Below are positions 28,380 through 64,000 of a DNA stretch of 64,000 nucleotides, one piece after another. The notes beneath the pieces are model-generated. The model was given only the letters and a program-made list of their open reading frames with translations. It was not told the origin of the DNA and did not search any database. Origin of the DNA: a bacterium (GTDB lineage Bacteria; Armatimonadota; Zipacnadia; Zipacnadales; UBA11051); the NCBI GenBank assembly GCA_021372615.1, contig JAJFUB010000017.1, positions 117 through 64,116 of the forward strand. The letters are read 5' to 3'. The translations under genes were made by a program, and so were the position numbers. Within the stretch, counting starts at the first letter, position 1. The number at the start of each line of letters is the position of its first letter.

Positions 28380-28434
28380 GCGACCGGGACACGTCGTAGG
28401 AGCGGCTTGCCGCCGCGACCTGAGATGCAATGCT

Positions 28435-31400: not shown

Positions 31401-31692
31401 GGGGACCATCACCGAGGACCACACCGCGCCGCTGGAGGCGCAGCAGACGTGGATGACGCGCTGGGCCTTCCCAATCTATACCGGCAGCGGTAGCAGCCTG
31501 TCTTTGGCCTGGGGCTCGATCCGCTATGAGTTCGATGAGCGACTGCGGCAGGCCCGCAACCAGAGCCCGGCGGCGCTCACCGGCACAGTGCGGCGTTCGG
31601 CCAGTGATCCGAACGATGTGCAAGGCTTGCTGCCGAAGCTGCCGTGCCTGCCGGCAAGCCCGACGTTGATGTACGCCGGAGGAACGCTGTAG
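28435..31692 (+). CDS. Giant pilus-associated protein (1085 aa from the first ATG) with a PilX-N-like hydrophobic anchor and a large extracellular domain. Candidate PilX/PilY1-like tip adhesin.
   Basis: ...RGRDG|QALLVAVLLMTVILLIGILFAALVSYNQGQS resembles the PilX N-terminal module. Start uncertain (alternative ATG at 28540). Confidence 0.6.
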   Translation: MAHQTAQTMMTRIAGDRGLRSPSAHRLAAGSRWRGMGGRGRDGQALLVAVLLMTVILLIGILFAALVSYNQGQSARHVDVVGADQNAAAGINYANGMLQYSPEGADWRPHFVAYAGTGTEDRQDPSTWPQDPSLWPSPPAQYQDGTVDFNFWGLDGTEGTEDDYYSDFDMVRGWFPLRADSVNKPGRFLRMGFHRYPDPNQLGTDRDSVFVGRGYVLLQVIYDPDPPYEPDDAPTPDKMSNCVKIVSIGRAVQQSNVFRRLVAYKPLGLTDHMMWVTNQSGGARQATVAVRPNVDMNASGSHETGETLFTHSFGPVRSEAPLYWLGHEISAGTPSTLFRLQTSPVSHEGYLRDDTFMVPRGLYALDSDINAATGAPVSANGAAVSVDGGANTVLPTALDPTATNAPSRVYVGTQNVPELAPVDLNATDPISGKSRYAALTRDSGAVVRATSADADHDVAANDPVNIGLYGHGAGMYIDNVDDIQYHGDLTDLMNDWLRSPTGQGYAGSDTGWNSLFSTYTPPGVEVEFFPNEAAVERTATGGIGTGDDPTALAVNQLWWPRHQAGAPGIKITRHDKRWRRADYDGTSWHVGGDSGRNVMVIDYPEYTHQVIFAEGNVRVKGVLPARDRTDTTGTLDRSFDMTVVSNGTIYIDGQLMTYQDVVGRRESTSVASGAVLDEDAAKIALLARDYVCLNPTQIVPQLTSGLVTAAADDEANPTVTDQHWELYPNTGGAVYTHWRFGWPDVDVNQDGYGDGTPGTAVDTANVGVSFVPIQAGADPGPSGMAMTVYNEDTATTVPYTFGGPPPFDPYTFMFVPPGAMLGSVSSPAAYASNAILPNWQTPGSTPAETFTNPNVPFNITPQISTSIGYANTVSVYQRDPQLGTGSTAYLIKKWKVEEYTTDTFNLTSGGTVTYAIPRPSVHCHVSALMLAQRGSWFVIPGTYFDPQAMADPAFDANAGISGADAATISALDSLYAARFRRYNYEIVVRGTITEDHTAPLEAQQTWMTRWAFPIYTGSGSSLSLAWGSIRYEFDERLRQARNQSPAALTGTVRRSASDPNDVQGLLPKLPCLPASPTLMYAGGTL

Positions 31693-31877
31693 CAACGGGG
31701 CGGGGGGTGGCCGGGGAGACGAGGGTCGCGGTCGGTGGCCGCTCCTACACCGGACTCCCTGGGAGAGGCAATCCCGTCGGCGACGGAGGTGTAGGAGCGG
31801 TCACCGTCCACGAGGGAGCAAGCGGCGGGGGAGGGTCGGGCTGTGGTGTGTGCTGTGCTGACCGGAGGTATGTCTTG

Positions 31878-37328: not shown

Positions 37329-37373
37329 AGATGTCTAGGGCCTGGTTCTCGTTCCCGCAGGAGTGACTGTCTT

Positions 37374-40300: not shown

Positions 40301-43300
40301 CGTGCAGATTGCCGTTGCCTCGGCCGTGCGCGAGGATCACCTGGTCGCCGAAGAGTTCGACCCCGTCGAGGTACAGGTGTCGGTGACGAGCAACGCGGCC
40401 GGCATCGCCCAGAGCGCCAGCGCCATCGAGATCGGTCGCGTGGCGCCCGGGGTGCGCGCGCAGCAGCCGGACACCACGGCGCGCGGCGTGGCGGCCAACA
40501 ACTACCAGCTCACCGACCATCGGGCCTTTCCCGGTGACGTATCGCCGCTGCCGGCTTTGGGGCACCGCCCCAGCGACGCGAAGGCGACGCTGCGCAACGA
40601 GAGCAATGTGGCGCTGGACATGCGGGTCGGCAGCGTACACGACTGGGTGGCCGGCAACGGCCTAAACAGCCGCGGCGACTACCTGCGCCTGGGGCAGGAC
40701 CCCTGGCTGGTCTCGTGGGGCCGCAAGGCCCAGGTCGGACCGCTCACACTCGACACACTGATGCCGCGCGTGAAGAACCCGGCGGGCAGTGGCCCCTATG
40801 AGGGAGACCTGCTGAACCGGACGTTCTGGAGCATCCTGGCGCCGGGGACCGAGGACCTCGGGGGAGAGGACACGTGGCTGCTGGCGGGCAACGGCACCCG
40901 CACGCCGGCGGCGGGTCTGATCACCGCCGGTGTCGCGGCCAAGCCGGTGCCGTTCGGCCAGCCGATCGGGACCTACACCGGGCAGCACGTGCAGTATCTG
41001 GATGACGGTGACGGCGTGTTCGAGTTCCAGCACTGGACCGGCAGCGGGTGGAGCGCCACCGATACTGCGGCGACGGAGTACAACCCTGCGGTGGACCTGC
41101 CGAGGGAACCGCTGGTGGGGCTGCTCAGTGGGCAGGTACGGGTCGTGGAGACGCGCGTGCCGCAGAGCGACTTCTACTCGGCGGACAACGACCCGGTCGT
41201 GCTGCCGAGCCCTACGCCGGGTGTCATGCAGGTCATCTGGTCGAGCAACCGCCTGTCGGCGGACTCGAGCCAGGCGGGGTATGACGCCGCAGCAGTCGCC
41301 GCCGGGGCAAACCCGACGGCTCTGCCCACCAGCCGGACGCCGCTGAACCTCGTGTATGTGACCACGACCGGCTATACCGATGCCGACGATCCGCTGTATC
41401 GGCGGTACGGGTGGCCTGTCGCGGGGAGCGGGGCCATATCGCCGGCACGGGCGCTGACCAGCGACCCCGACAACGCCGCTGGCAGAATCACCAACAGCTC
41501 GCCCTGGGCGATGTACGACCTGTCGGGCAACAAATGGTCGTTCTGGCACAGGAGCCAGCCCAATGCTGGCGGGGTCGAGTCGACGCTGCGATACCGAGGT
41601 CCTCTGGGCGCCGCGAACTGGACCTGGCCAACCGGCATTCCGCCCTTCATCTACGACACGGGCCTGGCCAAGCAGGGGATGCGGGGCTTCTGGACCAGCA
41701 ACGGGGCCTGGCTGTTCTGGCACGAGGGGACACCGGGGCGCGAACGGCTGATGTTCCGGTGGAACTTCGACGGCTCGACCACGGCGAATGAGAAGCCGGT
41801 GCCGGTCACGAACCAGATGGGAGCGGGCATCACCGACCTGGTCAACGCGCCAACGCTGCCTGACGCGACCACCCCGATGGTGATCCGCAAGACCGGCACG
41901 AGCCCGTTCACCTACACCCGCGATGCCTCGGTGTTCACCAACAGCAACGTGGTGCACCTGTTCTTCTCGGGCTTCGTGACGCACGAGGGGCAGGCGGATG
42001 TCTGCTGGACGAAGTTCAACGCCAACACCATGTCCAACGCGGGCAGCGGGGTGACGTGGGCGAACGACAACTACTCCAAGCTGCCCTTCCCGCGGGTGAC
42101 CGACGAGGAGATGGAGCCGGACGGTCTGCACCAGCTCTATGGCAGCCGGCACCTGGACTGGCTGGTGGGGCGGAACGCGGCCTCCGACATGCCGGTGATC
42201 CAGGCTTTCCTGCGGGGCGACGGCATCAGCCCGGCGTTCCAACTGCAGTTGGGCTACCACGACACGATCGGTGACGACAAGGCACGACCCTCGCAGACGT
42301 TCAACATCGTGTGGGATGACTCGCGCGCCAACTACTATGACCGGGCGCGGGGCATCTACTATGTGACGCCGATCCTGACCTCGGTCAACGGCTCGTCCCT
42401 GCCCGCGCGCTGCGGCTACAACCCGACCACGGGCTCGTACACCAGCGGCTGGTACCTGCGCGACCCGAGTTCGACGGTCACGGCCCCGCGGCCCATCAGC
42501 ATGGCGATCAACCCGGCGGCCGGGACGGTGCAGTTCAGCTCGCCGCTGTTCAATGAGGACGCGCCGACGGATCGGACGGCGGTGTTCTGGTCCAGCGACA
42601 CGTTGGGTGGCGGCGGATCTGATCCCGCGCTGGAGGATGTCGTGCTGCACGTGGCGTACACGCCGTACATCTACCGCGTGACGCGGAGCAGCGCGGCCGA
42701 CGACGAGCCGTCGGCCTTCTATGATCCTGCAACCGCCGGGCGGCTGACCGTGTTCTGGCGGCGGAGCTACCCGGTCAGTGAGGCGCCGCACTTCGGCCGG
42801 CCGTCCTACATGTACAAGTGCTACACGACCTCAGTCCAGGTCGGGCGGCCCCCGGTATCAGGGAACGCCACGATCACGGAGTGGACCACCGGCAATTCCG
42901 TTACGTTGCTGTCGAGCAACCCCAATGCCGGCATCTACACGCTGGACCCGGCGACGGGGCAGGCGTACCTGCGGGTGGCGTACAATGACAGCGGCGGGAC
43001 AGCTCGGGTCGAACGGCACCAAGTTATCGGCTGGAGCCAGGAGATGGTGGTGCCGCTGGACACGGTGATTGGTGACGGCTCGATGGTGGCGGTGCCGGAG
43101 TCGTTCAGCGTGCCGCCCACCGAGGGCGCCGCGGCGAGCGTCCCGGCCGTGCGGTACTGGCTGTTCTGGTCGAGCCCGCGCGGGGTGTATGACCTGCGGC
43201 TGGTGGAGGACAACGGCACACGGGTGGCAGGGGACCTGGCGGTGCACCCGTCTTCGGACATCTACTCGGCGGTCGTGGCGCCCGACTTCGGTGGCCTGGC

Positions 43301-43343
43301 TCCGGAGCGCACGGTGCCGACGATCTCGCCCGACCCGACCTAG
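37374..43343 (+). CDS. Giant secreted protein (1989 aa) with a signal peptide and three CxxC...C knuckle motifs. Candidate adhesin.
   Basis: AGGAG RBS and ATG at 37374. Signal peptide MQRYQTRAVFIIGAALLVATAFAQ. Motifs CPYCSYS...C, CNICGAVW...C, CPRCGTERRDSGSC. Confidence 0.7.
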   Translation: MQRYQTRAVFIIGAALLVATAFAQNYEVRTFVADPSVATTDDASTSTKTFQYLYNSIRQRYVCPYCSYSQATAGNCPDPWKASGHPSNLALRDLSALPKSRFLSLAAQEMPDRTHSDLTLPNAAGTLLYRALIGRPYKPKDSDDTTTGSVLYAAAAGLINTDAAVGPVIAENDPVRWLVIPPTPLRRDVKASDYTPGVDPDYGLPQRRPEAQADPGTDNGGDDDWRAQLIEPQSGDPGYFDAASLLNYLEIGVNPYRVDEGDTWWVRYTEVYKKDAADLGNVANGTFARAQVSIYSVLYGWQSGADPSTPLTIDPNGPQNNETAIATPFSVIADSGAVQLTFSEGGDDADGDARDGWAGDTVSVPAGQLESSRTWVVRFMVRSNCRLIPGWQDVDDDAVDPTYKDINGTWHNNATFDADPVAYTFGGRKEAWMKAASASTVPTVTTETDVEQTNDEPEGYTIPANCTGNGMAAVQWRDPDPATEATWTPDPTAGGTTANAVYRRTGYEWQYDAGINGGAVTNITNDEIATGAPANYSAGYPYVHFAGARFMSTRTETPPTNTQWDKDSDGDGDEQAETQGLALAYPKVIIGLCNTSGVDLVYGAYGPGSITSRRTYDVVNRWNGAAATSVCNICGAVWAPRWNGTAWESTAPTVCPYHSAAATDITELTGTGAGNTTYNGTYTRQTGMVNGHDYYRKGATSYYIYHAPAPRKRWLMATSTAVTWKNAAYWNNMLAGTWNPQKEPGNPVVAATVDTSSGVLETAPQGGGAYDAALDVWRAATAIGDDERREPAQTVQHVLPASALRSGARSVASCRNTDSSAGSDPNDTDPGTNEVWAEIPRSQPPSVPEAAGHTNNYSADLGYRGGMVTFRNETAPTADEHAYPPTVSPLTNGWDTFYRNPDLGCFQPATGQWPYLCDAGTPGDISDDHIVWNTTNSCSLHTGATVNEVEGRHYFCPRCGTERRDSGSCPFDGTLLVQIAVASAVREDHLVAEEFDPVEVQVSVTSNAAGIAQSASAIEIGRVAPGVRAQQPDTTARGVAANNYQLTDHRAFPGDVSPLPALGHRPSDAKATLRNESNVALDMRVGSVHDWVAGNGLNSRGDYLRLGQDPWLVSWGRKAQVGPLTLDTLMPRVKNPAGSGPYEGDLLNRTFWSILAPGTEDLGGEDTWLLAGNGTRTPAAGLITAGVAAKPVPFGQPIGTYTGQHVQYLDDGDGVFEFQHWTGSGWSATDTAATEYNPAVDLPREPLVGLLSGQVRVVETRVPQSDFYSADNDPVVLPSPTPGVMQVIWSSNRLSADSSQAGYDAAAVAAGANPTALPTSRTPLNLVYVTTTGYTDADDPLYRRYGWPVAGSGAISPARALTSDPDNAAGRITNSSPWAMYDLSGNKWSFWHRSQPNAGGVESTLRYRGPLGAANWTWPTGIPPFIYDTGLAKQGMRGFWTSNGAWLFWHEGTPGRERLMFRWNFDGSTTANEKPVPVTNQMGAGITDLVNAPTLPDATTPMVIRKTGTSPFTYTRDASVFTNSNVVHLFFSGFVTHEGQADVCWTKFNANTMSNAGSGVTWANDNYSKLPFPRVTDEEMEPDGLHQLYGSRHLDWLVGRNAASDMPVIQAFLRGDGISPAFQLQLGYHDTIGDDKARPSQTFNIVWDDSRANYYDRARGIYYVTPILTSVNGSSLPARCGYNPTTGSYTSGWYLRDPSSTVTAPRPISMAINPAAGTVQFSSPLFNEDAPTDRTAVFWSSDTLGGGGSDPALEDVVLHVAYTPYIYRVTRSSAADDEPSAFYDPATAGRLTVFWRRSYPVSEAPHFGRPSYMYKCYTTSVQVGRPPVSGNATITEWTTGNSVTLLSSNPNAGIYTLDPATGQAYLRVAYNDSGGTARVERHQVIGWSQEMVVPLDTVIGDGSMVAVPESFSVPPTEGAAASVPAVRYWLFWSSPRGVYDLRLVEDNGTRVAGDLAVHPSSDIYSAVVAPDFGGLAPERTVPTISPDPT

Positions 43344-48661: not shown

Positions 48662-48747
48662 AGGACGTTGCGGGGCAACGGCCCCGCCTGACCTGATGCC
48701 GTAACGACTCTGCGACGGGGGCGTTCAGGTACCCCCGGGAGGAGATC

Positions 48748-50472
48748 ATGTTGACGCCACGCAAGCGGTCGGTCATCCCGTCACTTCTCGCCGCGGTTCT
48801 CTTCACAGTCCTGATTGGGGTTGTGGCTTGCGCTGACGCCGGCAAGGGCGGTGAGCAGCAGCTCATCAACATTGATGTGAAGGACGCCCCGGTCGAGCAG
48901 GTTCTGCGCATGCTCGCCAAGGCGGCTGATGTGAACATCATCGTGGGTCAGGACGTCAAGGGCACCGTCGAGGCGGTCACACTGCACGACGTGACTGTAG
49001 ACACGGCCTTGCGTTCGATCGCGAAGTCGTTGGGCTTCTTCTGGTATCGGGAAGACAACGTGTACTTCGTGTCCACACAGCCGACGCTGCCTGAGACGGG
49101 GCCCACCAGCCGGCCCGGCGGAGGACAGGTGGCGACTGCAGAGCCGCAGGCCGGCAGCGCAGCCGCGACCTCCCCTGCAGTGGCCCCCAGCACACGGACC
49201 GCTCCGACAACAGGTGTGATGCCGCCGCCGCTGCCCACGTCGGTGGAGCCGGCCTCGACCCCCGCGACAACTGAGCCCAAGATCGTCCAGACGCTCATCC
49301 CGCTGAAGCATACCGATGCCGGCGAGATGGCGGTGTTGTTCGGGGGCGTGATCTGCGCCGGCACCACCACGACGGATCGGTTCCCCGCTGTGACGCCGTC
49401 TCAGGCGCGCCACAACGCGGCGCGTGGCAAGCGCAACGCCCAGTCCGACGTGTTCGGGCTGAGCTTCGGCATGCCCGGTGGCAGTGGGGCCAGTGGCCTG
49501 GGGCAGGACTTTGGCGACACCGGTGGGGGCGGCCGTGGCAGCCGGGGCAGCCGGGGCTCGAGCAGCAGCAGCGGCCTGGGCGGCAGCAGCCAGAGCGGAC
49601 GGCGGGGCGGCGGCGGGGGTGGCGGCGGAAGCGCCCTGGGCTCGATGCTGCCGGGCGAGATGGAACCGCCCATTGCCTTCTTGCCGCAGAACGCCTTGCT
49701 GGTGCAGGGCAGCCAGGAAGACATAGACCGCTTCAAGGAGATCCTGGACCTGCTCGACAAGCCCTCCAAGCAGGTGGAGATATCCGCCAAGTTCGTGAAC
49801 GTCCAGACCACGAGCCAGAACGCCCTCGGCATTGACTGGAGCATCTCCAACGGGTCGTTGGAGATCTTCAACCAGGGCTTCGCGCCGGCCGAGGCCGTCA
49901 ACAATGTGATCCGCTACACCCACGGCCGATTCACGACGCAGCTCAATGCGCTGATCACCAGCGGGCGCGCCACCGTCATCAATGAGCCGCACATCGTCAC
50001 CCAGAACAACCAGTTCGCGGAGATTGACTTCACCACGACCATTCCGTACTTCTCGGCGACGATCTCATACAACCAGTATGGGACGCGTGAGGTGGACTTC
50101 GAGGAGGACGAGGTGGACGTCACGAACGCGCTGTGGGTCGTGCCGCGGATCAACGCGGATGACAGCGTAACCGTGTATCTGGAGCCGGAGTTGGATGACC
50201 AGATCGGTGAGGTCGAGGGGCCCAACGGTGAAGTGATCCCGATCGTCACCGAGCAGTACCTGTCCACCACGGTGCGGGTGGGCGACGGCGAGACGATCGT
50301 TTTGGGCGGGCTCATCCGCAAGAATGAGAGCAGCACCTCCAAACAGACGCCGCTGCTGAGCCGCATCCCGATCCTGGGCCCGCTGTTCCGGTCCAAGAAC
50401 CAGACCAAGGACAACGAGGAGTTGCTCGTCTTCGTGACTCCCCGGATCATTCGTGACGTACCGAAGCAGTAG
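48748..50472 (+). CDS. pilQ: Type IV pilus secretin PilQ.
   Basis: N0 domain plus C-terminal secretin domain with the signature TPLLSRIPILGPLFRS...EELLVFVTPRII. Confidence 0.9.
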   Translation: MLTPRKRSVIPSLLAAVLFTVLIGVVACADAGKGGEQQLINIDVKDAPVEQVLRMLAKAADVNIIVGQDVKGTVEAVTLHDVTVDTALRSIAKSLGFFWYREDNVYFVSTQPTLPETGPTSRPGGGQVATAEPQAGSAAATSPAVAPSTRTAPTTGVMPPPLPTSVEPASTPATTEPKIVQTLIPLKHTDAGEMAVLFGGVICAGTTTTDRFPAVTPSQARHNAARGKRNAQSDVFGLSFGMPGGSGASGLGQDFGDTGGGGRGSRGSRGSSSSSGLGGSSQSGRRGGGGGGGGSALGSMLPGEMEPPIAFLPQNALLVQGSQEDIDRFKEILDLLDKPSKQVEISAKFVNVQTTSQNALGIDWSISNGSLEIFNQGFAPAEAVNNVIRYTHGRFTTQLNALITSGRATVINEPHIVTQNNQFAEIDFTTTIPYFSATISYNQYGTREVDFEEDEVDVTNALWVVPRINADDSVTVYLEPELDDQIGEVEGPNGEVIPIVTEQYLSTTVRVGDGETIVLGGLIRKNESSTSKQTPLLSRIPILGPLFRSKNQTKDNEELLVFVTPRIIRDVPKQ

Positions 50473-52532: not shown

Positions 52533-52548
52533 CGGAGGGGCGTGACGT

Positions 52549-53124
52549 TTGGGGCTTACCGAGCATGACCTCATTCTGCGGGCGCAGGCGGGCGACCGGC
52601 GCAGCTTCGACCAACTCGTCGCCCGGGCCTATCCCCTCGTCTTCAACACGGCGTACCGCATCCTGGGCGACCACGACTCCGCCGCCGATGCCACGCAGAC
52701 CTCGTTCGTACGCGCCTACCGCTCCCTAGGCACCTTCCGCCGGACCTCCTCCTTCACCACGTGGCTGTACCGGATCGTCAGCAACGTGTGCCTGGACATG
52801 GTGCGCCGGGGCCGGCGTCAGGCGCAGAGCCTGACCTTCGACTCCGAAGAGGACCCCCAGTCCGAGCGCGAGATCCCCGACGAACGCGAGCATCCTGAGC
52901 GCCTGACCATCGAGAGCGAACTGCAGCGGGCGGTGCACCGGGCCCTGGGGAAGCTGCGGCTCGAGCATCGTGTCGTGCTGACCTTGTATGATCTCGCCGG
53001 GTTCTCCTATGAGGAGATTGCCGAGGCGCTGAAGCTCCCGTTGGGGACCGTGAAGAGCCGTCTGAACCGTGCGCGGTTGGCTCTGCGGGATGAGCTGAGC
53101 AGTCATACGGAACTTATCCGGTGA
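52549..53124 (+). CDS. ECF-type (group 4) sigma-70 factor.
   Basis: Region 2 FVRAYRSLGTF...FTTWLYRIVSNVCLD and region 4 SYEEIAEALKLPLGTVKSRLNRAR. TTG start with a GGAGGGG RBS. Confidence 0.85.
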   Translation: MGLTEHDLILRAQAGDRRSFDQLVARAYPLVFNTAYRILGDHDSAADATQTSFVRAYRSLGTFRRTSSFTTWLYRIVSNVCLDMVRRGRRQAQSLTFDSEEDPQSEREIPDEREHPERLTIESELQRAVHRALGKLRLEHRVVLTLYDLAGFSYEEIAEALKLPLGTVKSRLNRARLALRDELSSHTELIR

Positions 53125-53267
53125 GGAAGAAGTCGTAACGCTACTGGCAGACGGCTTGTTCCCACCGGGGCGCCGGACCCGGTCTCCCGGTGGCCGGTCT
53201 GTCGGAGCCGGCCCCACTTCGTGTCGTCCCACGGGCCCGGCATCTTCGAGTACAGCGGAGTCGTACC

Positions 53268-54515
53268 ATGGACTGCCGAACCTGTCGCGAGCATTTCACC
53301 GAGCTGCTGGAGGGGACCGCTCCGGCAGCGGCCGTTCAGCATGTGGCCGGGTGCGAGGAGTGCGGCCGGGCTCTGGTCGAGGTGCGGGACACGGTGCGGG
53401 AGCTACGGAGCCTGCCCGTTGTGGCGCCACCGGCGGGGCTGCTGCGGGACATCTCGCGGGCGGTGGACGCCGCTGCCCGGCCGGCGCAGACCAAGACATG
53501 GTGGCAACCGCTGGCCGCCGGCCTCTCGATGGCGGCCTGCGTGTGTCTCCTGGTGTGGGCGGTCGTGCTGCATCCCGTCGGTGTGACATCAGACTTGCCC
53601 GGTGTGCAGGTCACGTACCAGGCGCCGACGTCCGCTCCCGCGGCGCTACCGGCTGCAGGCCCCGCGCTGGGCAGCGGCTCCGGCGGGACCGAGGGTCGCT
53701 TCCCGCGTGTCCCGAGGCGTGCCTACGCGGGGCGCGAGCGGGCCCCGTTCGTTCCGTCCGGCGGACGGGGGCAGAGTCTCCCCAAGCTGCCCGCGCTGGG
53801 CTCGTGGGGTGAGCGGCTGGCGCAGTTGCCGCCGACGAGTCGCCCGACGGGCGGAAGCTCCACCGCTACGGACGCGGGCACGGAGAAGCCGGCAGGGACC
53901 TTCGCCGCCGAGCCGGGCGCCGATGGAGCGCTGACGCCGCCGCTGCGCCGGCAGGCCGGCACGGTGCAGTTGACGTTCGTGCCGCCGCCCAGCAAGCCGG
54001 TGGGCGAAGCAGTCGTCGGCGAGCTGACCGTGAGCAGCCAGGCCGAGGCCATGATAACGCTGCGGGTGACGACGGAGCAGGGCCTGCGCGTGACCAATGC
54101 GCGGCGCGGCGTGGTATATGCGGGGCCGATGCGCAGCGGCGCGGCGCTGCATGTGCCGCTGCGGCTGTTGGCCTGGAAGCCGGGAACACACCGGCTGCGG
54201 GTACAGCTGGAGAGCGACGTGGCGGGGGTCGCAGCGGACCTGGAGATCGTGCTTTCAGAATTCGTGGGCGACATGGGGAAGAATGGCGAGGCAGTGGTGT
54301 CTCTAAGACTGTACGAGACACCCTCGCTGCGGGCCATCCGCAAGCTTGCCGCCGCCGCCGGTGAACGTGTGGTCATTCACGAGGGTGTCGAGGCCAAGGT
54401 GGTAACACTCGATTTCAGTGCCGGTGTACCCTTTGCCGCTGCCCTGCGGATTCTGTGCGATGACTGCGGCTACCGCGTCGAGGAGCGCGACGGAGTCTAC
54501 CACATCCTCAGGTGA
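53268..54515 (+). CDS. Transmembrane anti-sigma factor with an N-terminal zf-HC2 zinc finger.
   Basis: MDCRTCREHFTELLEG...HVAGCEECG. One TM helix, then an extracytoplasmic domain. Confidence 0.7.
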   Translation: MDCRTCREHFTELLEGTAPAAAVQHVAGCEECGRALVEVRDTVRELRSLPVVAPPAGLLRDISRAVDAAARPAQTKTWWQPLAAGLSMAACVCLLVWAVVLHPVGVTSDLPGVQVTYQAPTSAPAALPAAGPALGSGSGGTEGRFPRVPRRAYAGRERAPFVPSGGRGQSLPKLPALGSWGERLAQLPPTSRPTGGSSTATDAGTEKPAGTFAAEPGADGALTPPLRRQAGTVQLTFVPPPSKPVGEAVVGELTVSSQAEAMITLRVTTEQGLRVTNARRGVVYAGPMRSGAALHVPLRLLAWKPGTHRLRVQLESDVAGVAADLEIVLSEFVGDMGKNGEAVVSLRLYETPSLRAIRKLAAAAGERVVIHEGVEAKVVTLDFSAGVPFAAALRILCDDCGYRVEERDGVYHILR

Positions 54516-54545
54516 GGCGGACGCCGGCAGAGAAAGGTGAGGATC

Positions 54546-56792
54546 ATGCGCCTGCTTCTGCCACTCGGAGTCGTCCTCAGCCTGCTTGCTGCCTGCTGCG
54601 CGCAGGCCTGCATCGTCATTCCCCACCCGCCGCCGCGCCCCGACATCAAGCCCCTGTACCTGGAGTGTAAGTCGCAGCACGTCGAGACCGTCATCGCCGA
54701 CCAGGTGGCGCGCACGACGGTCACGACGGAGCTGCACAACCCCCACGGCCAGCAAGTAGAGGGCACCTTCCTGTTCCCCGTGCCGGCCGGTGCGAGCGTC
54801 AGTGACTTCTCGTACTGGATCGGCGACAAGGAGATGAAGGGCGAGCTGCTGGACCGCGACAAAGCGCGCGGGATCTACGAGGACATCGTGCGCAAGATGC
54901 GCGACCCCGCGCTGCTGGAGTACGACGGCGCCCAACTCTTCAAGGCGAGCATCTTTCCCATCCCCGCCGGCGGCGACGCCAAGACGAAGCTGCAGTTCAC
55001 CCAGGTGCTCAAGGCCGAGGGCGGCCTGGTACGGTACCTGCACGCCGTCAAGCTGGGACGCACCACGCCCAACCGTGGGCAGCTCATCGTGGACGTGAAG
55101 ATCTCCTCGAAGTCCCCGATCAAGTCCGTCTACTCGCCCACCCACAAGGTGGATGTGACCCGCAAGAGCGACCGCGAGGTGCGGGTCGGGCTGGAGCTGG
55201 ACAGCACGGACTTCAACGCCGACTTCGAGCTGCTGTACGGGCTGGAGGAGAAGGACTTCGGCGTGAATGTCCTGACCTACCGGCCGGAGGGCGAGGCGGG
55301 GTACTTCATGCTGCTGCTGGCGCCCAAGCAGCAGTGGGCGGAGCAGGAGATCGAGGGCAAGGATGTCGTTTTCGCCCTCGACACCTCCGGCAGCATGAGC
55401 GGGGAGAAGATCGCGCAGGCCAAGAAGGCCTTCACGTACTGCCTCAACTCGCTCAAGCCGCGCGACCGCTTCGGTCTGCTGACCTTCGCTACCGAGACGC
55501 GTCTGTTTGAGGACAAGCTGCTGGCGGCGGAGCCGGACACCATCAAGCGCGCGAAGGAGTTCGTGGGCAAGATTGACGCCGCGGGCTCGACAGCGCTCAA
55601 CGACGCACTGCTGCAGTCGGTGGACCTGTTCGGCAAGGGCAGCGACCGCCCGCGCATGATGATCTTCCTGACTGATGGCCTGCCGACGGCCGGGGAACGG
55701 AACGTCGAGCAGATCATCAAGAACGTGGCGAAGGCCAACGGCACGGCCAGCGACGACGATGAGAAGGCACGCGTGTCCCGCCTCTTCGTCTTCGGGGTGG
55801 GCGACGACGTGAACACCCACCTGCTCGACCGCGTGGCCGACGGCAACGGTGGGTCGAGCAACTACGTGCGGCCCGACGAGGACATCGAGGCGGCCGTGTC
55901 GGCCCTCTACGCCAAGCTGAGCCACCCGGTGTTGTCCGACATCACCCTGAAGCTGGACAAGGCGGAGGCGTTCAAGGTGTACCCGCAGAAGCTGCCCGAT
56001 CTGTTCGCCGGGAGCCAACTCGTGGTGACGGGACGATACGAGGGCAGTGGCCGCTCGAACATCGTGCTAAGCGGCACGGCGAGCGGCAAGGAGATGGTGC
56101 ACGAGTACACGGGCGACTTCCCGAAGGAGACCGATGAGAACGTCTTTGTGGCGCGGGTGTGGGCCGGGCGGCGGATCGGCTATCTGCTCGACCAGGTGCG
56201 CCTGAACGGCGAGGACAAGGAACTCAAGGACGAGATCGTCAAGCTGGCGATGAAGTACGGGATTGTCACGCCGTACACGAGCTACCTGGTGCAGGAGGAC
56301 AAGGACCTGTCGCGGGTGGCGGCGGGCCAGCAGCGGGCCTTCGGGGCCGCGGCCAGTGCGCCGGGCCGGGGCGGGGCCATCGGCCCGGCGGGGCCGGCAC
56401 CCACGGCGGCTGCCCCCAGGGAGGCCATGAAGGCCAACGTGGGCGCTGGTGCGGTGCACGTGGCGCAGAGCACCCAGGCGCTGCGCTCTGCGACCCAGCA
56501 GGAGGCCCAGTACCAGGGCTATCAGCAAGTGGCACAGAGGACCTTCTATCAGGATGGCGAAACATGGGTGGACACGTCCTGGCAGCAGGGGGCCCAGCAG
56601 GGGACGAGAATCCTGCAGGTGAAGGCCTTCAGCCAGGCGTACTTCGACGTGCTCAAGGCGCGTCCCGACCTGGCGCCGTATCTGGCGCTGAGTGATCGTG
56701 TCCAGGTGCAGCTCGCGAAGGTGGGCGTGCAGGTGGGGCCCGAGGGGTTGGAGACGCTGACTGCCGAGCAGCTTGAGGAGCTCAAGAAGTGA
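54546..56792 (+). CDS. Secreted VIT domain + von Willebrand factor A domain protein.
   Basis: Signal peptide. vWA MIDAS DTSGSMSG plus additional T and D residues. Confidence 0.8.
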   Translation: MRLLLPLGVVLSLLAACCAQACIVIPHPPPRPDIKPLYLECKSQHVETVIADQVARTTVTTELHNPHGQQVEGTFLFPVPAGASVSDFSYWIGDKEMKGELLDRDKARGIYEDIVRKMRDPALLEYDGAQLFKASIFPIPAGGDAKTKLQFTQVLKAEGGLVRYLHAVKLGRTTPNRGQLIVDVKISSKSPIKSVYSPTHKVDVTRKSDREVRVGLELDSTDFNADFELLYGLEEKDFGVNVLTYRPEGEAGYFMLLLAPKQQWAEQEIEGKDVVFALDTSGSMSGEKIAQAKKAFTYCLNSLKPRDRFGLLTFATETRLFEDKLLAAEPDTIKRAKEFVGKIDAAGSTALNDALLQSVDLFGKGSDRPRMMIFLTDGLPTAGERNVEQIIKNVAKANGTASDDDEKARVSRLFVFGVGDDVNTHLLDRVADGNGGSSNYVRPDEDIEAAVSALYAKLSHPVLSDITLKLDKAEAFKVYPQKLPDLFAGSQLVVTGRYEGSGRSNIVLSGTASGKEMVHEYTGDFPKETDENVFVARVWAGRRIGYLLDQVRLNGEDKELKDEIVKLAMKYGIVTPYTSYLVQEDKDLSRVAAGQQRAFGAAASAPGRGGAIGPAGPAPTAAAPREAMKANVGAGAVHVAQSTQALRSATQQEAQYQGYQQVAQRTFYQDGETWVDTSWQQGAQQGTRILQVKAFSQAYFDVLKARPDLAPYLALSDRVQVQLAKVGVQVGPEGLETLTAEQLEELKK

Positions 56793-58783: not shown

Positions 58784-58812
58784 TTGAACTGACCGGGCGG
58801 CTATGTTATACT
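58784..58812 (+). promoter_or_regulatory. Sigma70-type promoter TTGAAC-17 nt-TATACT upstream of the secreted M/G/P-rich protein gene.
   Basis: Read directly. A ~110-nt leader with a ccgga/tccgg hairpin follows. Confidence 0.45.
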
Positions 58813-58928
58813 GCGAGCAGTCTGCGGATGCCGGAGACCGTCCGGCTGTGGATGCGGTAGCACAAATCGAACCACTGGGAGGACCGGCGGAGACGCTGTA
58901 CCGCCGGGCCCGAAAGGGGAGCGTGCCG

Positions 58929-59846
58929 ATGCGTTTCCTGACGAGCCGGCTGGCCATGGGGCTCGCACTGCTGGTGCTTCTGCCGCTGTGTGCGCAGGCC
59001 CGGGAAGTGCAACTGGCCGGCATTCGGCTGGGCGACCACGCCATCAACATCCTGGATGTCTACGGCATGCCTGACGGTATTGCGGTGGGCGAGGGTGCTG
59101 AACTCACTGCGGCCCAGACCGCCGGTGGGGCGGCGGCCGGGGCTCCCGTGATGGGGGCGCCGACGCCCGACCTGATGGGCATGGCCATGAGCACCCTGGG
59201 CATGGGTGGGATGCCGGGCGGCGGCATGCCGGGCATGATGCCCATGGCAGGCGCCGCGCCCGGTGGTCCGGCCATGGGTCCCGGTGGGGCGCCTGGCGGG
59301 ATGCCTGGTCCGGAGGGCGGCCCCGGGGCGTTCCCCGGTGGCGCCGCTCCCGGCGGGCCCGGTGAGGGCGGCGCTCCCGGCGCGGGTGGCGGCGCTGCGG
59401 CCGGTGGCATGGCGGCGGAGCCATTCCCCATCTGGGCACTGGCGGTATGGGTGGATCTGGCGGCCCGCGACGTGGAATGGGTCTACCAGAAGGGCCCGGT
59501 CGTGCTGGGCTTTGTGTTGGATCGTGACGGCTTCTGCAAGGTCATTGCGGTGGCCGCCGAGCAGTGCGGGTTTGCGCGCACCGCGCTGTGGTCGCCCCAC
59601 CGCTATGTCAAGCTGGGCGACAACTTCAAGCGCGTGCTCTATCGCTATGGCTATCCCGACGAGACCGTGACCTTTACCGCCTCGGGGCCGGGGTCGGCCT
59701 CGCCCGGTGGCGGGCAGATCACGGTGAGCTTCAACCAGACCAGCCGCACCTATGCCCGCGACTGTCTGCTGCGGTACACCCAGAACAACAACGTGGAGTT
59801 CACGCTCCACGACATGGTCGTAACCCGGATCCATATCTGGGAATAG
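58929..59846 (+). CDS. Secreted hypothetical protein with a Met/Gly/Pro-rich low-complexity region and a conserved C-terminal domain.
   Basis: Signal peptide MRFLTSRLAMGLALLVLLPLCAQA. In-frame ATG at 58929 inside ORF 58803..59846. Confidence 0.6.
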   Translation: MRFLTSRLAMGLALLVLLPLCAQAREVQLAGIRLGDHAINILDVYGMPDGIAVGEGAELTAAQTAGGAAAGAPVMGAPTPDLMGMAMSTLGMGGMPGGGMPGMMPMAGAAPGGPAMGPGGAPGGMPGPEGGPGAFPGGAAPGGPGEGGAPGAGGGAAAGGMAAEPFPIWALAVWVDLAARDVEWVYQKGPVVLGFVLDRDGFCKVIAVAAEQCGFARTALWSPHRYVKLGDNFKRVLYRYGYPDETVTFTASGPGSASPGGGQITVSFNQTSRTYARDCLLRYTQNNNVEFTLHDMVVTRIHIWE

Positions 59847-60054: not shown

Positions 60055-62073
60055 ATGGCAGACAACGACGTCAAAGAGGAGATCCGGCGGCGCCTCGACG
60101 TGGTGGAGGTGGTGTCGCAGTACGTGCCGCTGCAGCGCGCGGGACGGCGCTTCAGCGCCCGCTGCCCCTTCCACCAGGAGAAGACGCCCTCGTTCTTCGT
60201 GGACCCCGAGCGCGGGTTCTGGAAGTGCTTCGGCTGCGGGGCTTCCGGGGACATCTTCTCCTTCGTGATGCAGATCGAGGGGCTCACGTTCCCTGAGGCA
60301 GCCGAGAAGCTCGCTCAGCGGGCCGGAGTGCAGTGGCGTGTGTCAGCCGGAGCCGAGAAGGCCGGCCAGGAGCGCCAGGCGGTGCTGCAGGCCAATGCCG
60401 CCGCTGCCAGTTGGTTCCGCCACAAGCTGTCCGAGCCTGAAGGGAAGCACGCCCTGGACTACCTGCGGGGGCGCGGGCTGTCCGACCAGATCATCAAGGA
60501 CTTCATGCTCGGCTATGCGCCGGACGGCTGGGACCATCTCGCCACGTACATGACGGGGCGTGGCACCAATGAGCGCCTGTTGACCGCCGCCGGCCTGGTC
60601 AGGCCGCGCAACACTGGCGGGGGCTGCTACGACTTCTTCCGCCACCGGGTCATGTTCCCGGTGATCGAGGTCACCGGCCGGGTCATCGCCTTCGGCGGCC
60701 GGGCACTGGACCCCGAAGAGAAGGCCAAGTACATCAACAGCCCCGACACCCCGGTGTTCCACAAGGGCACGACGGTGTACGGGCTGAACCTGGCCCGCGA
60801 ACACATCGCCCACGCCAAGCAGGTGATTGTGGTCGAGGGGTACATGGATGTGATCGCGCTGGTGCAGGCGGGCATCCGGAATGTCGTCGCCTGCCTGGGG
60901 ACGTCCACGACCGAGGAGCACCTGAAGCTGCTGGGGCGTTACGCCGACAGCATCATCTTCGTCTACGACGCCGACGCCGCGGGGATGAGGGCGGCGCTGC
61001 GGAACATTGCGGTCTTCGAGAGTGCCGGGGCCGCGGCGCGGCTGGCGGTGCTGCCACCGGGGCAGGACCCGGACGAGTGCGTCCGCAGCGGCGGCCCGGA
61101 CGTATTCCGCCAGTGCCTTGCGGAGGCGATGAGCTTCCCCGAGTACGAGATCAAGATGGCCTTCGCGCAGTACGACATGGGGGATGCCGATGGGCGCATG
61201 CGGGCAGCACGGGAGGCCGTCACAAGCCTGCTGAAAGTGCACGACCGGGCGCGGCGGGAGGAGTTGCTGGACCGCGTGGCGGCCCGTTGGGCACAGGGCG
61301 ACCTGAGCCGCTCCGAACAACTGGCACACGTGTTGCGTCTGGAACTGAACCGTCGCTTCACCGATCAGCGGGGACAGCGTCGGGGGCGGGACTCGCGCTA
61401 CGACCGCGGGCACATCATGGAGACACTAGCGCGCAGCGCCGGGGATGTGGAGCCCGGCGTGGTGCGGCTGGAAGAGGGGGTCCTCACGGCGGCGCTGCAC
61501 GAGCCGGCGTGGGCGCGCGAGGTGGCGGAGAAGCTGAGCGAAGAGGACTTCGCCGATCCGCAGCACCGCCGCATCGCGGCCGTGCTAATGACCCGGGCGC
61601 GGCAGGGCGCCTTCATTCCGGCCGAGTTGGTAGAGGCGTTCGAGGAAGGCGATCCAGTTCGGGAACGCGCGATCGAGTTGGTTGTCGGCGATACGGTGTG
61701 GTCAGAGGAGGAATTCGGCGAGGCTATCGCGAAGATGGAGTACGGCAGGTCCACGCACGGCTTGCGCCCGAAGTACGACGTGACGCCGAGCGAGACGGCC
61801 GAGGAACCGGCGATTGAGGCAGGCGGGGAGGACTTTGAGGCGTGGCGGCGAAGAGTCGCCGCGGCCATCGATAGCGGTGAGATCGCGCCGGACGATCCAG
61901 ACTTCATCAGGTTCATGCAACTGGGGAGGAAGTTTCAGGGCACCGGCCAACAGGGCTTTGTGGAGCAGGCCGGCCTGACATCGTTTTCGGCTTCCCGGAA
62001 GCTGGCCGGACAGGCGCCGGACCGAGCAGAGACGACAGACGAACCGTCGGGTGACCCTGACGAGAGGAGTTGA
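60055..62073 (+). CDS. dnaG: DNA primase.
   Basis: CHC2 zinc finger ([11 protein letters not shown]...CFGCG). Toprim motifs EGYMDV and DAD. C-terminal helicase-binding domain. Confidence 0.95.
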
Positions 62074-62078
62074 ACTAC

Positions 62079-64000
62079 TTGCCCGAGGGGAAGGACGCTG
62101 AGATTCACGAACTGGAGGAGGTCCGCGCGCTGATGCGCAAGGGTCAGCGGCAGGGCTTCTTGAGCTATGCCGAGATCCAGGACGGCCTCAGCGAGAACGA
62201 AGACCTGGAGACGGAGGACATAGACGAGGTCTACCGGTTCTTGACCGACGCCGGCATCCGCATCGTGGACGAAGACGAGGCGGAGGAGCAGCAGGAGGAC
62301 GGTCTGGCGGAGGAGGAACTGGAGGAACTCGACGAGGTACCGATTGACGACTCGGTGCGCATGTACCTGCGCGACATCGGGCGCGTGCCGCTGCTCTCGG
62401 CCCAGGAAGAGGTCGAACTGGCGCGACGCATCCAGAAGGGCGAGGGCGCGGTCGAGTTCGACCCCCGGTCCAACACGCTGCACTTCACCCCCATGGAGCG
62501 CCTCGAGCCCCAGACCGTGTACAAGATCGCGGTGCGGGGCGGCGAGGGCGGTCTGCACGACATCGCCGGGCATTACCTCCAGAAGGATGACGTCTGGACC
62601 ATCCGCACCGGCTCGCCCGATGCGCGGCTGCATGTCGTGGAGTGCTTCCCCGCCGGCAAGAGCAAGGGCGTGGGCGTGACGCCCCTGGTCACGATTCACT
62701 TCAACGATGCGATCATGGCCGACAGCGTGTCGGCCGACACGGTCCATCTGACCGACAAGGCCGGGAAGCCCATCCCCGGGAAGCCGGAGATTGCCGACAA
62801 GCCCTTCGTCGTGCACCTCAAGCTGGCGGACAGGCTACGCTACCGCAATGTCTATCACCTCGTGGTCAAGGGTGGCCCGCAGGGCGTCCGCGGGGTGGGC
62901 AACGGCAAGCTGGACCGGGACTTCAAGGCTAACTTCGAGACCGTGGCGCAGAAGTCCGCCCCGCGCGTGGTGAGCACCGATCCCCCGTCGGGCGCGCCGG
63001 CCGCGCCGCGCGCCCGGGCGATCACCATCACCTTCGACCAGCGCCTGGTGCCCGGCAGCGTCACCGAGAGGACGGTCACGTTGCTCGACGTGATGGACAC
63101 CGCCGTGCCGGGCAGCGTCTACTATGACGACGAGCGGCGCGAGGTGCGCTTCGTGCCGGAGCGGGCGCTCATGTCGGACATGGCCTACACGCTGGGCCTG
63201 AAGGCGGGCAAGAACGGGCTGAAGGGTCTCGCGGGCTACAACCTCTCCGAGCCCTACCAGCTCACCTTCACCACCGGCGAGGACCTGGAGCCGCCGCAGA
63301 TCGTGAAGCGGTCGCCGCAGCCGGACAGCAAGGGCTCGCCGCTGCTGGGCGTCATTGGGGTCGGCTTCTCCAACCAGCTCGACCCGGGCACGGTGGACCC
63401 GGGGACGCTGGTGCTCAAGGATGAGGAGGCGGTGCAGGCGCTGGCCGAGGCCAACCTGCGGCTGGTGGTCAGCATCGCCCGCAAGTACACGGGCCGCTCC
63501 TCGATGAGCTTCCTGGACCTGATCCAGGAAGGCAACATGGGGCTGATGCGGGCGGTCGAGAAGTTCGACTACCGCAAGGGATACAAGTTCAGCACCTACG
63601 CCACCTGGTGGATCCGGCAGGCCATCACCCGTGCCATCGCCGACCAGGGCCGGATCATCCGCATCCCGGTACACATGGTCGAGACGATCAACCGCCTCGT
63701 GAAGACCTCACGGCAGCTCCTGCAGCAACTGGGCCGCGAGCCGACGCTGGAGGACGTCGCCGCCGAGATGGACATGCCGCTGGAGCGCGTGAGCGAGATC
63801 AAGCGCATCGCACCCGAGCCGCTGTCGCTCGAGGCCCCGGTGGGCGAGGAGGAGAACAGCCACCTCGGCGACTTCGTGCCGGATGAGGAGATCCACACGC
63901 CGGTGGACGCGGCCTCGAACCTGGTGCTGCGCGAGCAGCTCGAACGGGTGCTGGCGACGCTGAGCGAGCGCGAGCGCGAGGTGCTGAAGCTGCGGTTCGG
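62079..64000 (+). CDS. rpoD: Primary sigma factor RpoD (3' partial; runs off the window) with a ~330-aa beta-repeat insertion in the non-conserved region.
   Basis: Translated by hand from the TTG at 62079 (AGGAG RBS at 62065-62069). Acidic region 1.1, region 1.2 ([32 protein letters not shown]), region 2 ([39 protein letters not shown]...[15 protein letters not shown]), region 3 onward. No stop before 64000. Confidence 0.9.

Follow-up and report, generated by a model that had tools for sequence, protein, structure and literature searches.

The dnaG-rpoD locus

The window analysed here, a stretch of 64,000 nucleotides from an Armatimonadota bacterium, ends within the gene of the housekeeping sigma factor of this organism, rpoD/sigA. 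This gene is directly preceded on the forward strand by dnaG (60055-62073, +), which encodes a DNA primase with Pfam matches to Zn_ribbon_DnaG, DNAG_N, Toprim and DnaB_bind. The stop codon of dnaG is a TGA located at 62071-62073 and rpoD begins right after it, the region 62063-62081 (+) comprising a ribosome-binding site, GAGGAG (62063-68, within the end of dnaG), and a likely TTG start codon (62079-81). The homologous TTG is the called start in the relatives P0159 (L081/L082), P0160 (L083) and P0162 (L084), and the NCBI entry P0002 has the same start position as this likely TTG; translation could alternatively begin at an in-frame TTG located at 62070. The frame is open on the forward strand from 62061 to the end of the window, which cuts off about 49 C-terminal residues (region 4) of the rpoD ORF (62079-64000, +). 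The translated part is identical to that of the full-length relative P0159 (689 aa) at 620 of 640 positions (97%).

The canonical sigma regions 1.1, 1.2, 2.1-2.4 and 3, which an earlier note made by reading the sequence had recognised, are all borne out by Pfam. In brief, the ORF encodes (i) region 1.1 and an acidic linker (62115-62333, +; PF03979, Sigma70_r1_1, 56.1 bits for a cut-off of 22.5), (ii) region 1.2 (62349-62444, +; PF00140, Sigma70_r1_2, 64.9 bits for a cut-off of 22), (iii) region 2, including 2.1 to 2.4 (63441-63653, +; Pfam r2, 81.5 bits) and (iv) region 3 (63681-63911, +; PF04539, 89.2 bits). Regions 2 and 3 are RpoD-like and share about 70% identity with Firmicutes SigA. Against the model TIGR02393 (RpoD_Cterm, cut-off 354 bits), the window fragment, which lacks most of region 4, scores 293.8 bits, and the full-length P0159, in which region 4 (PF04545) is present, reaches 380 bits. 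One could suspect a specialised paralogue of the primary sigma factor, rather than the housekeeping one, from the full-length RpoD equivalog models PRK09210 and PRK05658, which stay below their cut-offs for P0159 (517.5 versus 572 bits and 508.2 versus 555 bits, respectively). However, this shortfall arises because the insert described below breaks the match into two stretches; P0159 passes TIGR02393, regions 1.1 and 1.2 are both present, regions 2-3 are SigA-like, and dnaG is found directly 5' of rpoD in the window and in 15/15 relatives with upstream DNA, a conserved order that is the housekeeping arrangement. A paralogue is thus very improbable.

An Ig-like insert in half/full/full/half register

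Regions 1.2 and 2.1 are separated by an insert of 327 aa (62445-63425, +), exactly at the coordinates, and with close to the length (about 330 aa), that the earlier note had given. Its Ig-like, Big-type nature, also proposed there, is established by a match of the ORF to Pfam Big_5 (PF13205) in four stretches, with 123 bits and E=1e-35 for a gathering threshold of 23.6, and agrees with the all-beta AF2 model presented below. The closest solved homologues of the sigma core are Firmicutes SigA proteins (B. subtilis 7ckq_F and S. aureus 8x6f_E), which are alignable in regions 1.1 and 1.2 as well and are devoid of a non-conserved region (NCR). Residues 18-131 and 131-322 of B. subtilis SigA align to query residues 16-122 and 448-640; this is a clean point insertion, in which the 327 aa are located at a single turn (…IEEGD/EES…) of the B. 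subtilis protein.

The E. coli sigma70 NCR occupies the same site, following region 1.2 and preceding region 2.1: its end, at residue 373 of E. coli RpoD, aligns to query residue 449, and query residues 122 and 448 flank the insert. Both are lineage-specific and variable in sequence, and both are surface-exposed parts of sigma domain 2. However, known NCRs are helical, whereas the Armatimonadota insert is all-beta, belongs to Big_5, forms a repeat module with a split domain and, with 327 aa, is larger than the E. coli NCR (247 aa). Homology to helical NCRs, which the earlier note had named as the finding that would tell against it, was not detected, the rpoD ORF giving no Pfam Sigma70_ner match at E<=1. 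To our knowledge, the sigma NCRs solved so far are either helical or absent.

The insert is composed of four consecutive segments on the forward strand. Segment A (62445-62615, +) consists of the four strands (C', E, F and G; AF2 pLDDT ~90) of a C-terminal Big_5 half domain and alone matches profile positions 60-103 with 20.8 bits; it is followed by two complete Big_5 domains, D2 (62616-62951, +; profile 4-105, 37.3 bits), which is the most variable of the three domains and contains a conserved LR(H/Y)RN motif, R134 being retained in 97% of the family, and D3 (62952-63284, +; profile 3-105, 63.7 bits); segment D (63285-63425, +) comprises strands A, A', B and C, an N-terminal Big_5 half domain, and alone matches profile positions 3-44 with 17.6 bits. 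Taken singly, both half domains are below the Big_5 cut-off of 23.6 bits. Rejoined in silico, halves A and D match the Big_5 profile in one stretch (positions 4-103) with 41.5 bits and E=2.4e-10. Likewise, in hhalign comparisons of family profiles, the rejoined halves score 157.5 against D3 (E=8e-30), D2 scoring 158.5 against D3, and the sole gap is of 6 residues at the junction. The rejoined domain lacks only the 6-residue tip of the C-C' hairpin, which is the attachment site of the sigma helices of regions 1.2 and 2.1. On the Big_5 profile, the insert thus totals three domain equivalents, in the register half, full, full and half. The 'three to four repeats' of the earlier note, whose motif string is essentially the sequence of D3, call for refinement, as the repeats are not in register; this register, and its implication for topology, had been overlooked.

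The same domain family and fold is found in the tandem Big_5 arrays of S-layer proteins, adhesins and L,D-transpeptidases, and giant tandem Big_5 proteins are colinear with insert residues 1-327 in a single stretch. These arrays are extracytoplasmic, in register and usually extended, whereas the insert is cytoplasmic, has exactly three domains, is shifted by about half a domain and is predicted to close on itself. No tandem repeat was found in the insert at the DNA level, and its domains share only 23-28% identity. GC3 is 0.94 in the insert, 0.95 in regions 2-3, and 0.86 in regions 1.1-1.2 and in dnaG; as these values are similar, codon usage is uniform across the insert and the gene, as had been noticed earlier together with the continuously open frame.

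Several other origins of the insert were considered and rejected. An intein or a mobile element was discarded as there are no such Pfam matches, and recent horizontal acquisition because the insert agrees with the remainder of the gene in GC3 and codon preference, and because identity to the best outside Big_5 matches is only 24-34%. Derivation from the giant ORFs of the same window was also set aside, since those ORFs have no Big_5.

Conservation and selection across the family

The family surfaced only with a whole-protein query, word-indexed homologue searches giving 5 matches with the insert alone and 8 with a 12-sequence insert alignment. Big_5 and every sigma region are present in 120/120 of the best relatives (52-97% identical), each encoded by one continuous ORF of 668-729 aa in ENA, JGI, NCBI or Logan assemblies, and the insert is also found in 11 species-representative genomes. 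Among the relatives examined, all named carriers are Armatimonadota, with the exception of one MAG labelled candidate division WS1, in agreement with the lineage-specific insertion postulated in the earlier note. The insert is 327 aa long in 69 of 116 members (range 325-338), and neither its loss nor its shortening was observed among the best 120 relatives.

Databases contain short entries of this family, namely P0002, annotated as 'Ig-like domain-containing protein, partial', and P0004, P0278 and P0292, which are 322-325-aa 'RpoD' entries starting inside D3. Such partial entries could evoke an assembly chimera or a frameshift fusing an Ig-repeat gene into rpoD, or two genes misread as one. 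However, P0004 (325 aa), the one short entry checked, is short only through a contig edge, its frame being open upstream to the contig end. The best 120 sequences, which are independent, and the 11 genomes all share the architecture, the full-length ORFs are intact in 120/120 of the best relatives with none of the frameshifts that would separate two genes, codon usage is uniform and the insert is under purifying selection; the artefact reading is effectively refuted already. For annotation, the consequence is that full-length RpoD models miss their cut-offs in this family and that truncated proteins are deposited under one name or the other.

The insert is conserved in a large Armatimonadota family under purifying selection. 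Compared with the window, dN/dS is 0.12-0.36 in the insert (0.12 in the closest pair) and 0.007-0.015 in the core, and mean identity is 41% and 93%, respectively. Each insert domain is nearer to its orthologue in other species (32-41% identity) than to its paralogues (~25%). Conserved insert positions are mostly structural (G, P, Y, F and D), to which are added near-invariant non-canonical residues, R134 (97%), K170 (99%) and N10 (95%). Across the family, the net charge has a mean of -6.5, with extremes of -24 and +7; a generic basic DNA-binding module was rejected on account of this charge of about -6.5. Rapid evolution, an unconserved charge and conservation that is mainly structural argue against a large conserved surface for binding DNA or a partner, and the pattern would fit a role that is mainly steric, or the absence of any role.

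The absence of a role corresponds to a tolerated passenger, that is, an ancient accidental insertion at a permissive surface hairpin, which would bring no benefit to transcription and would be kept folded since its misfolding or partial deletion would poison an essential protein. The NCR site is indeed permissive, since other phyla have between 0 and 247 aa there; dN/dS is 10-50 times higher in the insert than in the core, conserved positions of the insert are mostly fold-determining and its net charge shows no conservation. On the other hand, the length and the three domains are kept in 120/120 of the best relatives, down to 52% identity, dN/dS is as low as 0.12 in the closest pair, R134, K170 and N10 are near-invariant without being canonical, and, if the insert were useless, a clean deletion to a Bacillus-type turn should be easy. 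On balance, a passenger is unlikely, but it is the most serious of the rival explanations.

Predicted closure and candidate role

The insert and the flanking sigma regions (453 residues) were modelled with AF2, using homologue alignments from database proteins. The deep-MSA model has a mean pLDDT of 84.6 and a pTM of 0.68, with values of 87-93 throughout the insert, which consists of beta strands only, with no helices of >=4 residues, and is predicted to have the Ig-like beta-sandwich fold of Big_5. In this model, the helix of region 1.2 (model residues 19-30) is connected to the first strand of the insert (34-39) by a linker of 3 residues, and the last strand (355-359) passes into the helix of region 2.1 (360-369) with a linker of 0 residues, both with a pLDDT of ~90. 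The split domain has the strand set A, A', B, C plus C', E, F, G, which is the same as in D2 and D3. At the junction, residues G1 and D326 are invariant (100%) in the family. With a shallow MSA, pTM is already 0.64, which suggests a fixed arrangement of the domains in the predicted structure, and pLDDT is <50 in 98/453 residues, nearly all of them in the sigma part.

On the basis of sequence and models, the following architecture is proposed. The insert would be an out-of-register slice of an ordinary tandem Big_5 array, whose two terminal half domains would pair into one complete domain, like the 'Velcro' blade of a beta-propeller, and this pairing would impose on the three domains the shape of a compact, closed triangle. 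Both ends of the insert would then be neighbours, forming the C and C' strands of one beta hairpin, and this hairpin would run straight into the two antiparallel sigma helices (regions 1.2 and 2.1). The closed triangle would be rigid, and its mounting on sigma domain 2 would be rigid as well. As the termini of an Ig domain are at opposite ends, the half/full/full/half register would solve the problem of fitting Ig domains into a tight helical hairpin. We consider this architecture highly probable.

Covariation was also analysed. Mean-field DCA on the 121-sequence family alignment, applied to the contact between segments A and D, was dominated by gap artefacts, and DCA on ~700-1700 Big_5 domains extracted from giant proteins yielded contacts too noisy to be transferred. 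With APC-corrected MI, the segment A x segment D block has the highest share of the top-1% pairs (1.6%), but the D2N x D2C and D3N x D3C blocks, used as positive controls, do not exceed mismatched blocks, and the test is therefore without power.

Complementary terminal halves are in principle capable of three-dimensional domain swapping, in which they would pair with those of a second sigma molecule to give dimers or chains, as a storage or regulatory form. However, the hairpin of the 1.2 and 2.1 helices keeps the halves no more than a few angstroms apart, and such short tethers (3 and 0 residues) strongly favour intramolecular pairing. Moreover, the AF2 monomer model is confident over both halves, and sigma acts as a monomer in the holoenzyme. 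An intermolecular swap can hardly be the arrangement in this family, and pairing of the two halves within one molecule is the reading retained here.

Closure of this kind has parallels. 'Velcro' closure in beta-propellers and circular permutation by duplication are established principles. In propellers likewise, the sequence repeat is offset from the structural unit, the partial repeats at the ends combine and the ring closes; the unit here is a whole Ig domain instead of a four-stranded blade, and closure would also make the module insertable into a helical hairpin. The insertions of the RNA polymerase beta and beta-prime subunits (SBHM, BEAN and HABAS; e.g. cyanobacterial Si3) are also repeated small beta domains in a loop of an essential transcription protein, but they are located in beta or beta-prime, not in sigma, and have non-Ig folds; no match of the insert to SBHM, BEAN or HABAS families was found, either in fold or in sequence. 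In cyanobacterial Si3, the first and last repeats meet so that the chain can return (PMC10895346), and HABAS domains include circular-permutation variants (PMC11515920). The latter survey reports lineage-specific insertions in beta and beta-prime of Armatimonadetes, and the terms 'sigma factor', 'immunoglobulin' and 'Ig-like' are absent from it (PMC11515920). In the literature, searches covering Armatimonadota rpoD as well as sigma factors whose NCR is Ig-like or Big_5 returned nothing relevant, and the self-closing split-Ig design was not found in the papers or solved structures searched.

Transcription initiation is known to be modulated by lineage-specific insertions, among them the NCR of sigma70, Si3 of E. 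coli and of cyanobacteria, and insertions in beta-prime. In E. coli, the NCR touches DNA at -16/-17 via R157 and promotes completion of the open complex, a role that is filled by RbpA in mycobacteria (10.1101/256826). By analogy, the insert, which would leave sigma domain 2 where the E. coli NCR does, could be an NCR-type buttress contacting the clamp, and possibly the clamp's own lineage-specific insertions, while its few conserved basic residues could touch the DNA backbone; these contacts could stabilise the open complex or tune promoter escape. This is the most likely role, although we put it forward tentatively. The insert may, secondarily, serve as a platform on which lineage-specific factors dock; the earlier note had suggested that it might provide a surface for protein-protein interaction. 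As for the combined explanation of the insert presented here, which is the best we can offer, its probability is estimated at about 0.7. It is more doubtful that the self-closing Ig triad is a functional rigid platform on sigma domain 2, in which a different fold would do the job of the E. coli NCR or RbpA, which would be needed for a stable open complex or for recruiting Armatimonadota-specific regulators, and whose out-of-register capture would illustrate a general route to insertability.

In summary, the only group-1 sigma factor seen in this poorly studied phylum carries a conserved all-beta NCR that is larger than that of E. coli. The half/full/full/half register would represent a clean natural case of a tandem-array slice closing on itself and, through this self-closure, becoming insertable into a hairpin of an essential protein, which is relevant to how proteins evolve and to how domain insertions can be engineered. 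For the organisms themselves, the insert may explain how the RNA polymerases of Armatimonadota stabilise the open complex.

The rpoD gene and its surroundings

The forward-strand gene at 62079-64000 is rpoD, encoding the housekeeping sigma factor. Pfam assigns Sigma70 regions 1.1, 1.2, 2 and 3 around a Big_5 match (PF13205; 123 bits, E=1e-35, four stretches), in line with the canonical regions read in the earlier note; region 4 falls beyond the window end, and the window RpoD is a fragment. It is identical at 620 of 640 positions to a full-length 689-aa database relative, P0159, which carries region 4 and passes the NCBIfam model TIGR02393 (RpoD_Cterm; 380 bits vs a 354-bit cut-off). The frame (forward strand, starting at 62052) is open from 62061 through the window end, and in GC3 and codon preference the insert resembles the remainder of the gene, in agreement with the open frame and uniform codon usage noted earlier.

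The gene follows dnaG (60055-62073, forward strand; Pfam Zn-ribbon, DNAG_N, Toprim and DnaB-binding domains), which lies directly upstream of rpoD in every relative with upstream DNA. The likely start is the TTG at 62079 (forward strand), the homologous TTG being used in the gene calls of close relatives; it is 5 nt from the dnaG stop (TGA, 62071-73), and a Shine-Dalgarno sequence, GAGGAG (62063-68, forward strand), lies inside the dnaG end. This spacing and the position of GAGGAG suggest translational coupling with a non-ATG start. A second in-frame TTG, at 62070, overlaps the dnaG stop.

Several other genes were recorded. On the forward strand, these include: (i) three consecutive co-directional giant ORFs (28366-43343; 1108, 1906 and 2004 aa) of coding-type GC3 (0.88-0.90), for which Pfam gave almost nothing, its only match being a weak NHL repeat in ORF two, and no Big_5; (ii) an ECF-type sigma factor (192 aa), then a 458-aa ORF without Pfam match that may encode its anti-sigma factor, then a VIT-VWA protein of 758 aa (52546-56792), preceded by a secretin (48697-50472), a 3-dehydroquinate synthase and a PASTA-domain protein; (iii) a 352-aa ORF (58788-59846) without Pfam match, between an alcohol dehydrogenase gene and dnaG, with a very-high-GC patch (0.78), especially at 59200-59500. 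In the closest relative (contig L081, 156-2148), gene calling splits dnaG into a Zn-ribbon piece of 117 aa and a second piece of 522 aa, despite 96-97% identity to the unbroken dnaG of the window; the split is probably a frameshift or assembly error in that contig. Downstream of rpoD, close relatives encode an nSTAND/AAA_16 NTPase of 1313 aa that is fused to PQQ-type beta-propeller repeats. It is located at L081 4539-8480, where a TPR protein comes next, and, on a second relative's locus, L085, from 1473 past the locus end at 2667; the window stops short of this position.

Site, register and predicted fold of the insert

The insert occupies exactly the limits proposed in the earlier note, 62445-63425, with 327 aa (about 330 had been estimated) between '...ARRIQKGE' and '[18 protein letters not shown]...'. 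Among PDB sequences (phmmer), B. subtilis SigA (7ckq_F) aligns with residues 18-131 to query 16-122 and with 131-322 to query 448-640, and S. aureus SigA aligns in the same way. As these alignments break cleanly at query 122/448, the 327 aa are, relative to Firmicutes SigA, a clean point insertion at the turn between the region 1.2 and region 2.1 helices. The E. coli RpoD alignment begins at residue 373 (query 449), where the sigma70 non-conserved region (NCR) ends on its C-terminal side, and the site is the classical sigma-NCR site. The published E. coli NCR has 247 aa, that of T. aquaticus 72, and the mycobacterial ones 29 and 32 (10.1101/256826).

The Ig-like beta nature suspected from the sequence holds, given the Big_5 match and an AlphaFold2 (AF2) model with only strands in the insert. 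The repeats, three to four in the earlier reading, are indeed Big_5 units, but in another register. Scanned alone, D2 (insert residues 58-169; 37 bits) and D3 (170-280; 64 bits) each match the whole profile, whereas the match is confined to profile positions 60-103 for the first 57 residues and to positions 3-44 for the last 47. Joined in silico, the last 47 and first 57 residues match Big_5 4-103 in a single stretch (41.5 bits, E=2.4e-10), better than D2. With hhalign on the 121-sequence family, the rejoined halves align to D3 end to end (probability 99.8%, E=8e-30, score 157.5), equally as well as D2 does (158.5), with a single gap, of 6 residues, that falls precisely where the halves were joined and corresponds to the C-C' beta hairpin tip. 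The insert thus reads [C-half][full][full][N-half], three domain equivalents in all. No DNA-level tandem repeat was found in the insert. Searching 1.84 billion representatives exhaustively with HMMER returned 5470 insert relatives, the top ones being giant proteins with 5-20 tandem Big_5 domains, to which insert residues 1-327 align colinearly without interruption (24-34% identity). The insert looks like part of an ordinary tandem Big_5 array, sliced out of register.

The AF2 model built on a 124-sequence family alignment reached a mean pLDDT of 84.6 and a pTM of 0.68, with pLDDT 87-93 throughout the insert, both halves and both junctions included. The split domain comprises strands A, A', B and C (C-terminal piece) and C', E, F and G (N-terminal piece), the same set of strands as in D2 and in D3. 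In construct numbering, three residues separate the region 1.2 helix (19-30) from strand C' (34-39), and strand C (355-359) passes straight into the region 2.1 helix (360-369). An earlier, shallow-alignment model already gave a pTM of 0.64, although pLDDT was below 50 in 98 of its 453 residues, almost all of them belonging to the sigma part; such a pTM is difficult to reach with flexibly linked domains. To our knowledge, every sigma structure has the region 1.2 and 2.1 helices side by side. The complementary profiles, the confidence of the model and the short tethers to these helices suggest that the two halves pair into one domain; if so, the head-to-tail chain of three ~40-A domains would close into a compact triangle, probably rigidly mounted on sigma domain 2. 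The termini of an Ig domain lie at opposite ends, so that an in-register slice is not insertable into a tight hairpin; a half-domain offset would bring both module ends into one beta hairpin, much as in the Velcro closure established for beta-propellers and in permutation by duplication. Foldseek supports the assigned fold, pairing the model with tandem bacterial Ig domains, those of LdtMt2 (E=2.6e-11) and of S-layer SbsC; no chain reproduces the three-domain arrangement (best query-normalised TM-score 0.26), and structure and PDB sequence searches found no solved sigma factor covering the insert.

Relatives and integrity of the ORF

A scan of one genome per species gave full-length matches in 11 MAGs, labelled Armatimonadota, Ca. 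Zipacnadia, Armatimonadia, 'candidate division WS1' or plain 'bacterium', in all of which the ORF is intact and the insert 327 aa long (330 in one); the next-best loci are Firmicutes SigA without insert. A whole-protein word-indexed search gave 7992 sigma-family matches, the best 120 of which (97-52% identity, 668-729 aa; from ENA, JGI, NCBI and Logan assemblies) all carry Big_5 and regions 1.1, 1.2, 2, 3 and 4, named entries reading 'RNA polymerase sigma factor RpoD [Armatimonadetes bacterium]'. The insert is 327 aa long in 69 of 116 members (range 325-338). The lineage-specific insertion proposed in the earlier note is thus supported, and the frameshift between two genes that it had envisaged was not seen; these intact ORFs exclude an assembly chimera or frameshift as the source of the insert.

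Database entries of this family, such as P0003, P0004, P0278, P0280 and P0292, are often truncated or mis-started. Entries of 322-325 aa named 'RpoD', and others named 'Ig-like domain-containing protein, partial', begin inside D3, several of the former at a conserved Met; in the one entry checked, P0004 (L085:1-1167), this is contig-edge truncation, the frame being still open upstream to the contig edge. In another entry, P0003, the tail is frameshifted from [10 protein letters not shown] onwards.

The proteins are already in databases with their Pfam architecture and the name 'RpoD', and are therefore not unknown. Their architecture, split-domain topology and distribution appear undescribed so far: literature searches turned up neither a sigma factor whose NCR is Ig-like or Big_5 nor an account of Armatimonadota rpoD, and a 2024 survey of RNA polymerase insertion domains treats beta and beta-prime, with no mention of 'sigma factor' or Ig-like domains (PMC11515920).

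Selection and possible role

Mean identity to the window is 41% in the insert vs 93% in region 2, and 17 of the 20 differences from P0159 fall within the insert. Its dN/dS (Nei-Gojobori) is 0.12 against a 97% relative and 0.26-0.36 against 85% and 80% relatives, vs 0.007-0.015 in regions 2-3; the insert is under purifying selection, far more relaxed than that on the core. Each Ig domain resembles its counterparts in other species (32-41% identity) more than it does its two companions in the insert (~25%), so that the three-domain layout predates the family. The sigma-proximal split domain is the most conserved part, and junction residues G1 and D326 are invariant. The majority of conserved positions are fold-determining, the near-invariant non-canonical residues being N10, R134 (in the LR(H/Y)RN motif of D2) and K170; net charge averages -6.5 (range -24 to +7).

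The insert is conserved family-wide. The main rival to the role favoured below, a tolerated passenger, is considered unlikely. The module and the E. coli NCR share their exit point on sigma domain 2. The E. coli NCR touches DNA at -16/-17 via a single arginine and promotes open-complex completion, and in mycobacteria RbpA substitutes for it (10.1101/256826); in cyanobacteria, Si3 strings together repeated beta modules and builds, with sigma region 2, a stabilising arch (PMC10895346), and Armatimonadetes carry their own beta and beta-prime insertions (PMC11515920). On the basis of this shared exit point and these parallels, an NCR-type buttress is tentatively favoured, with a probability of about 0.35, the remainder going to roles other than buttress or passenger. 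As such a buttress, the module would contact the clamp and/or spacer DNA, and could serve secondarily in partner docking. The insert belongs among lineage-specific sigma NCRs.
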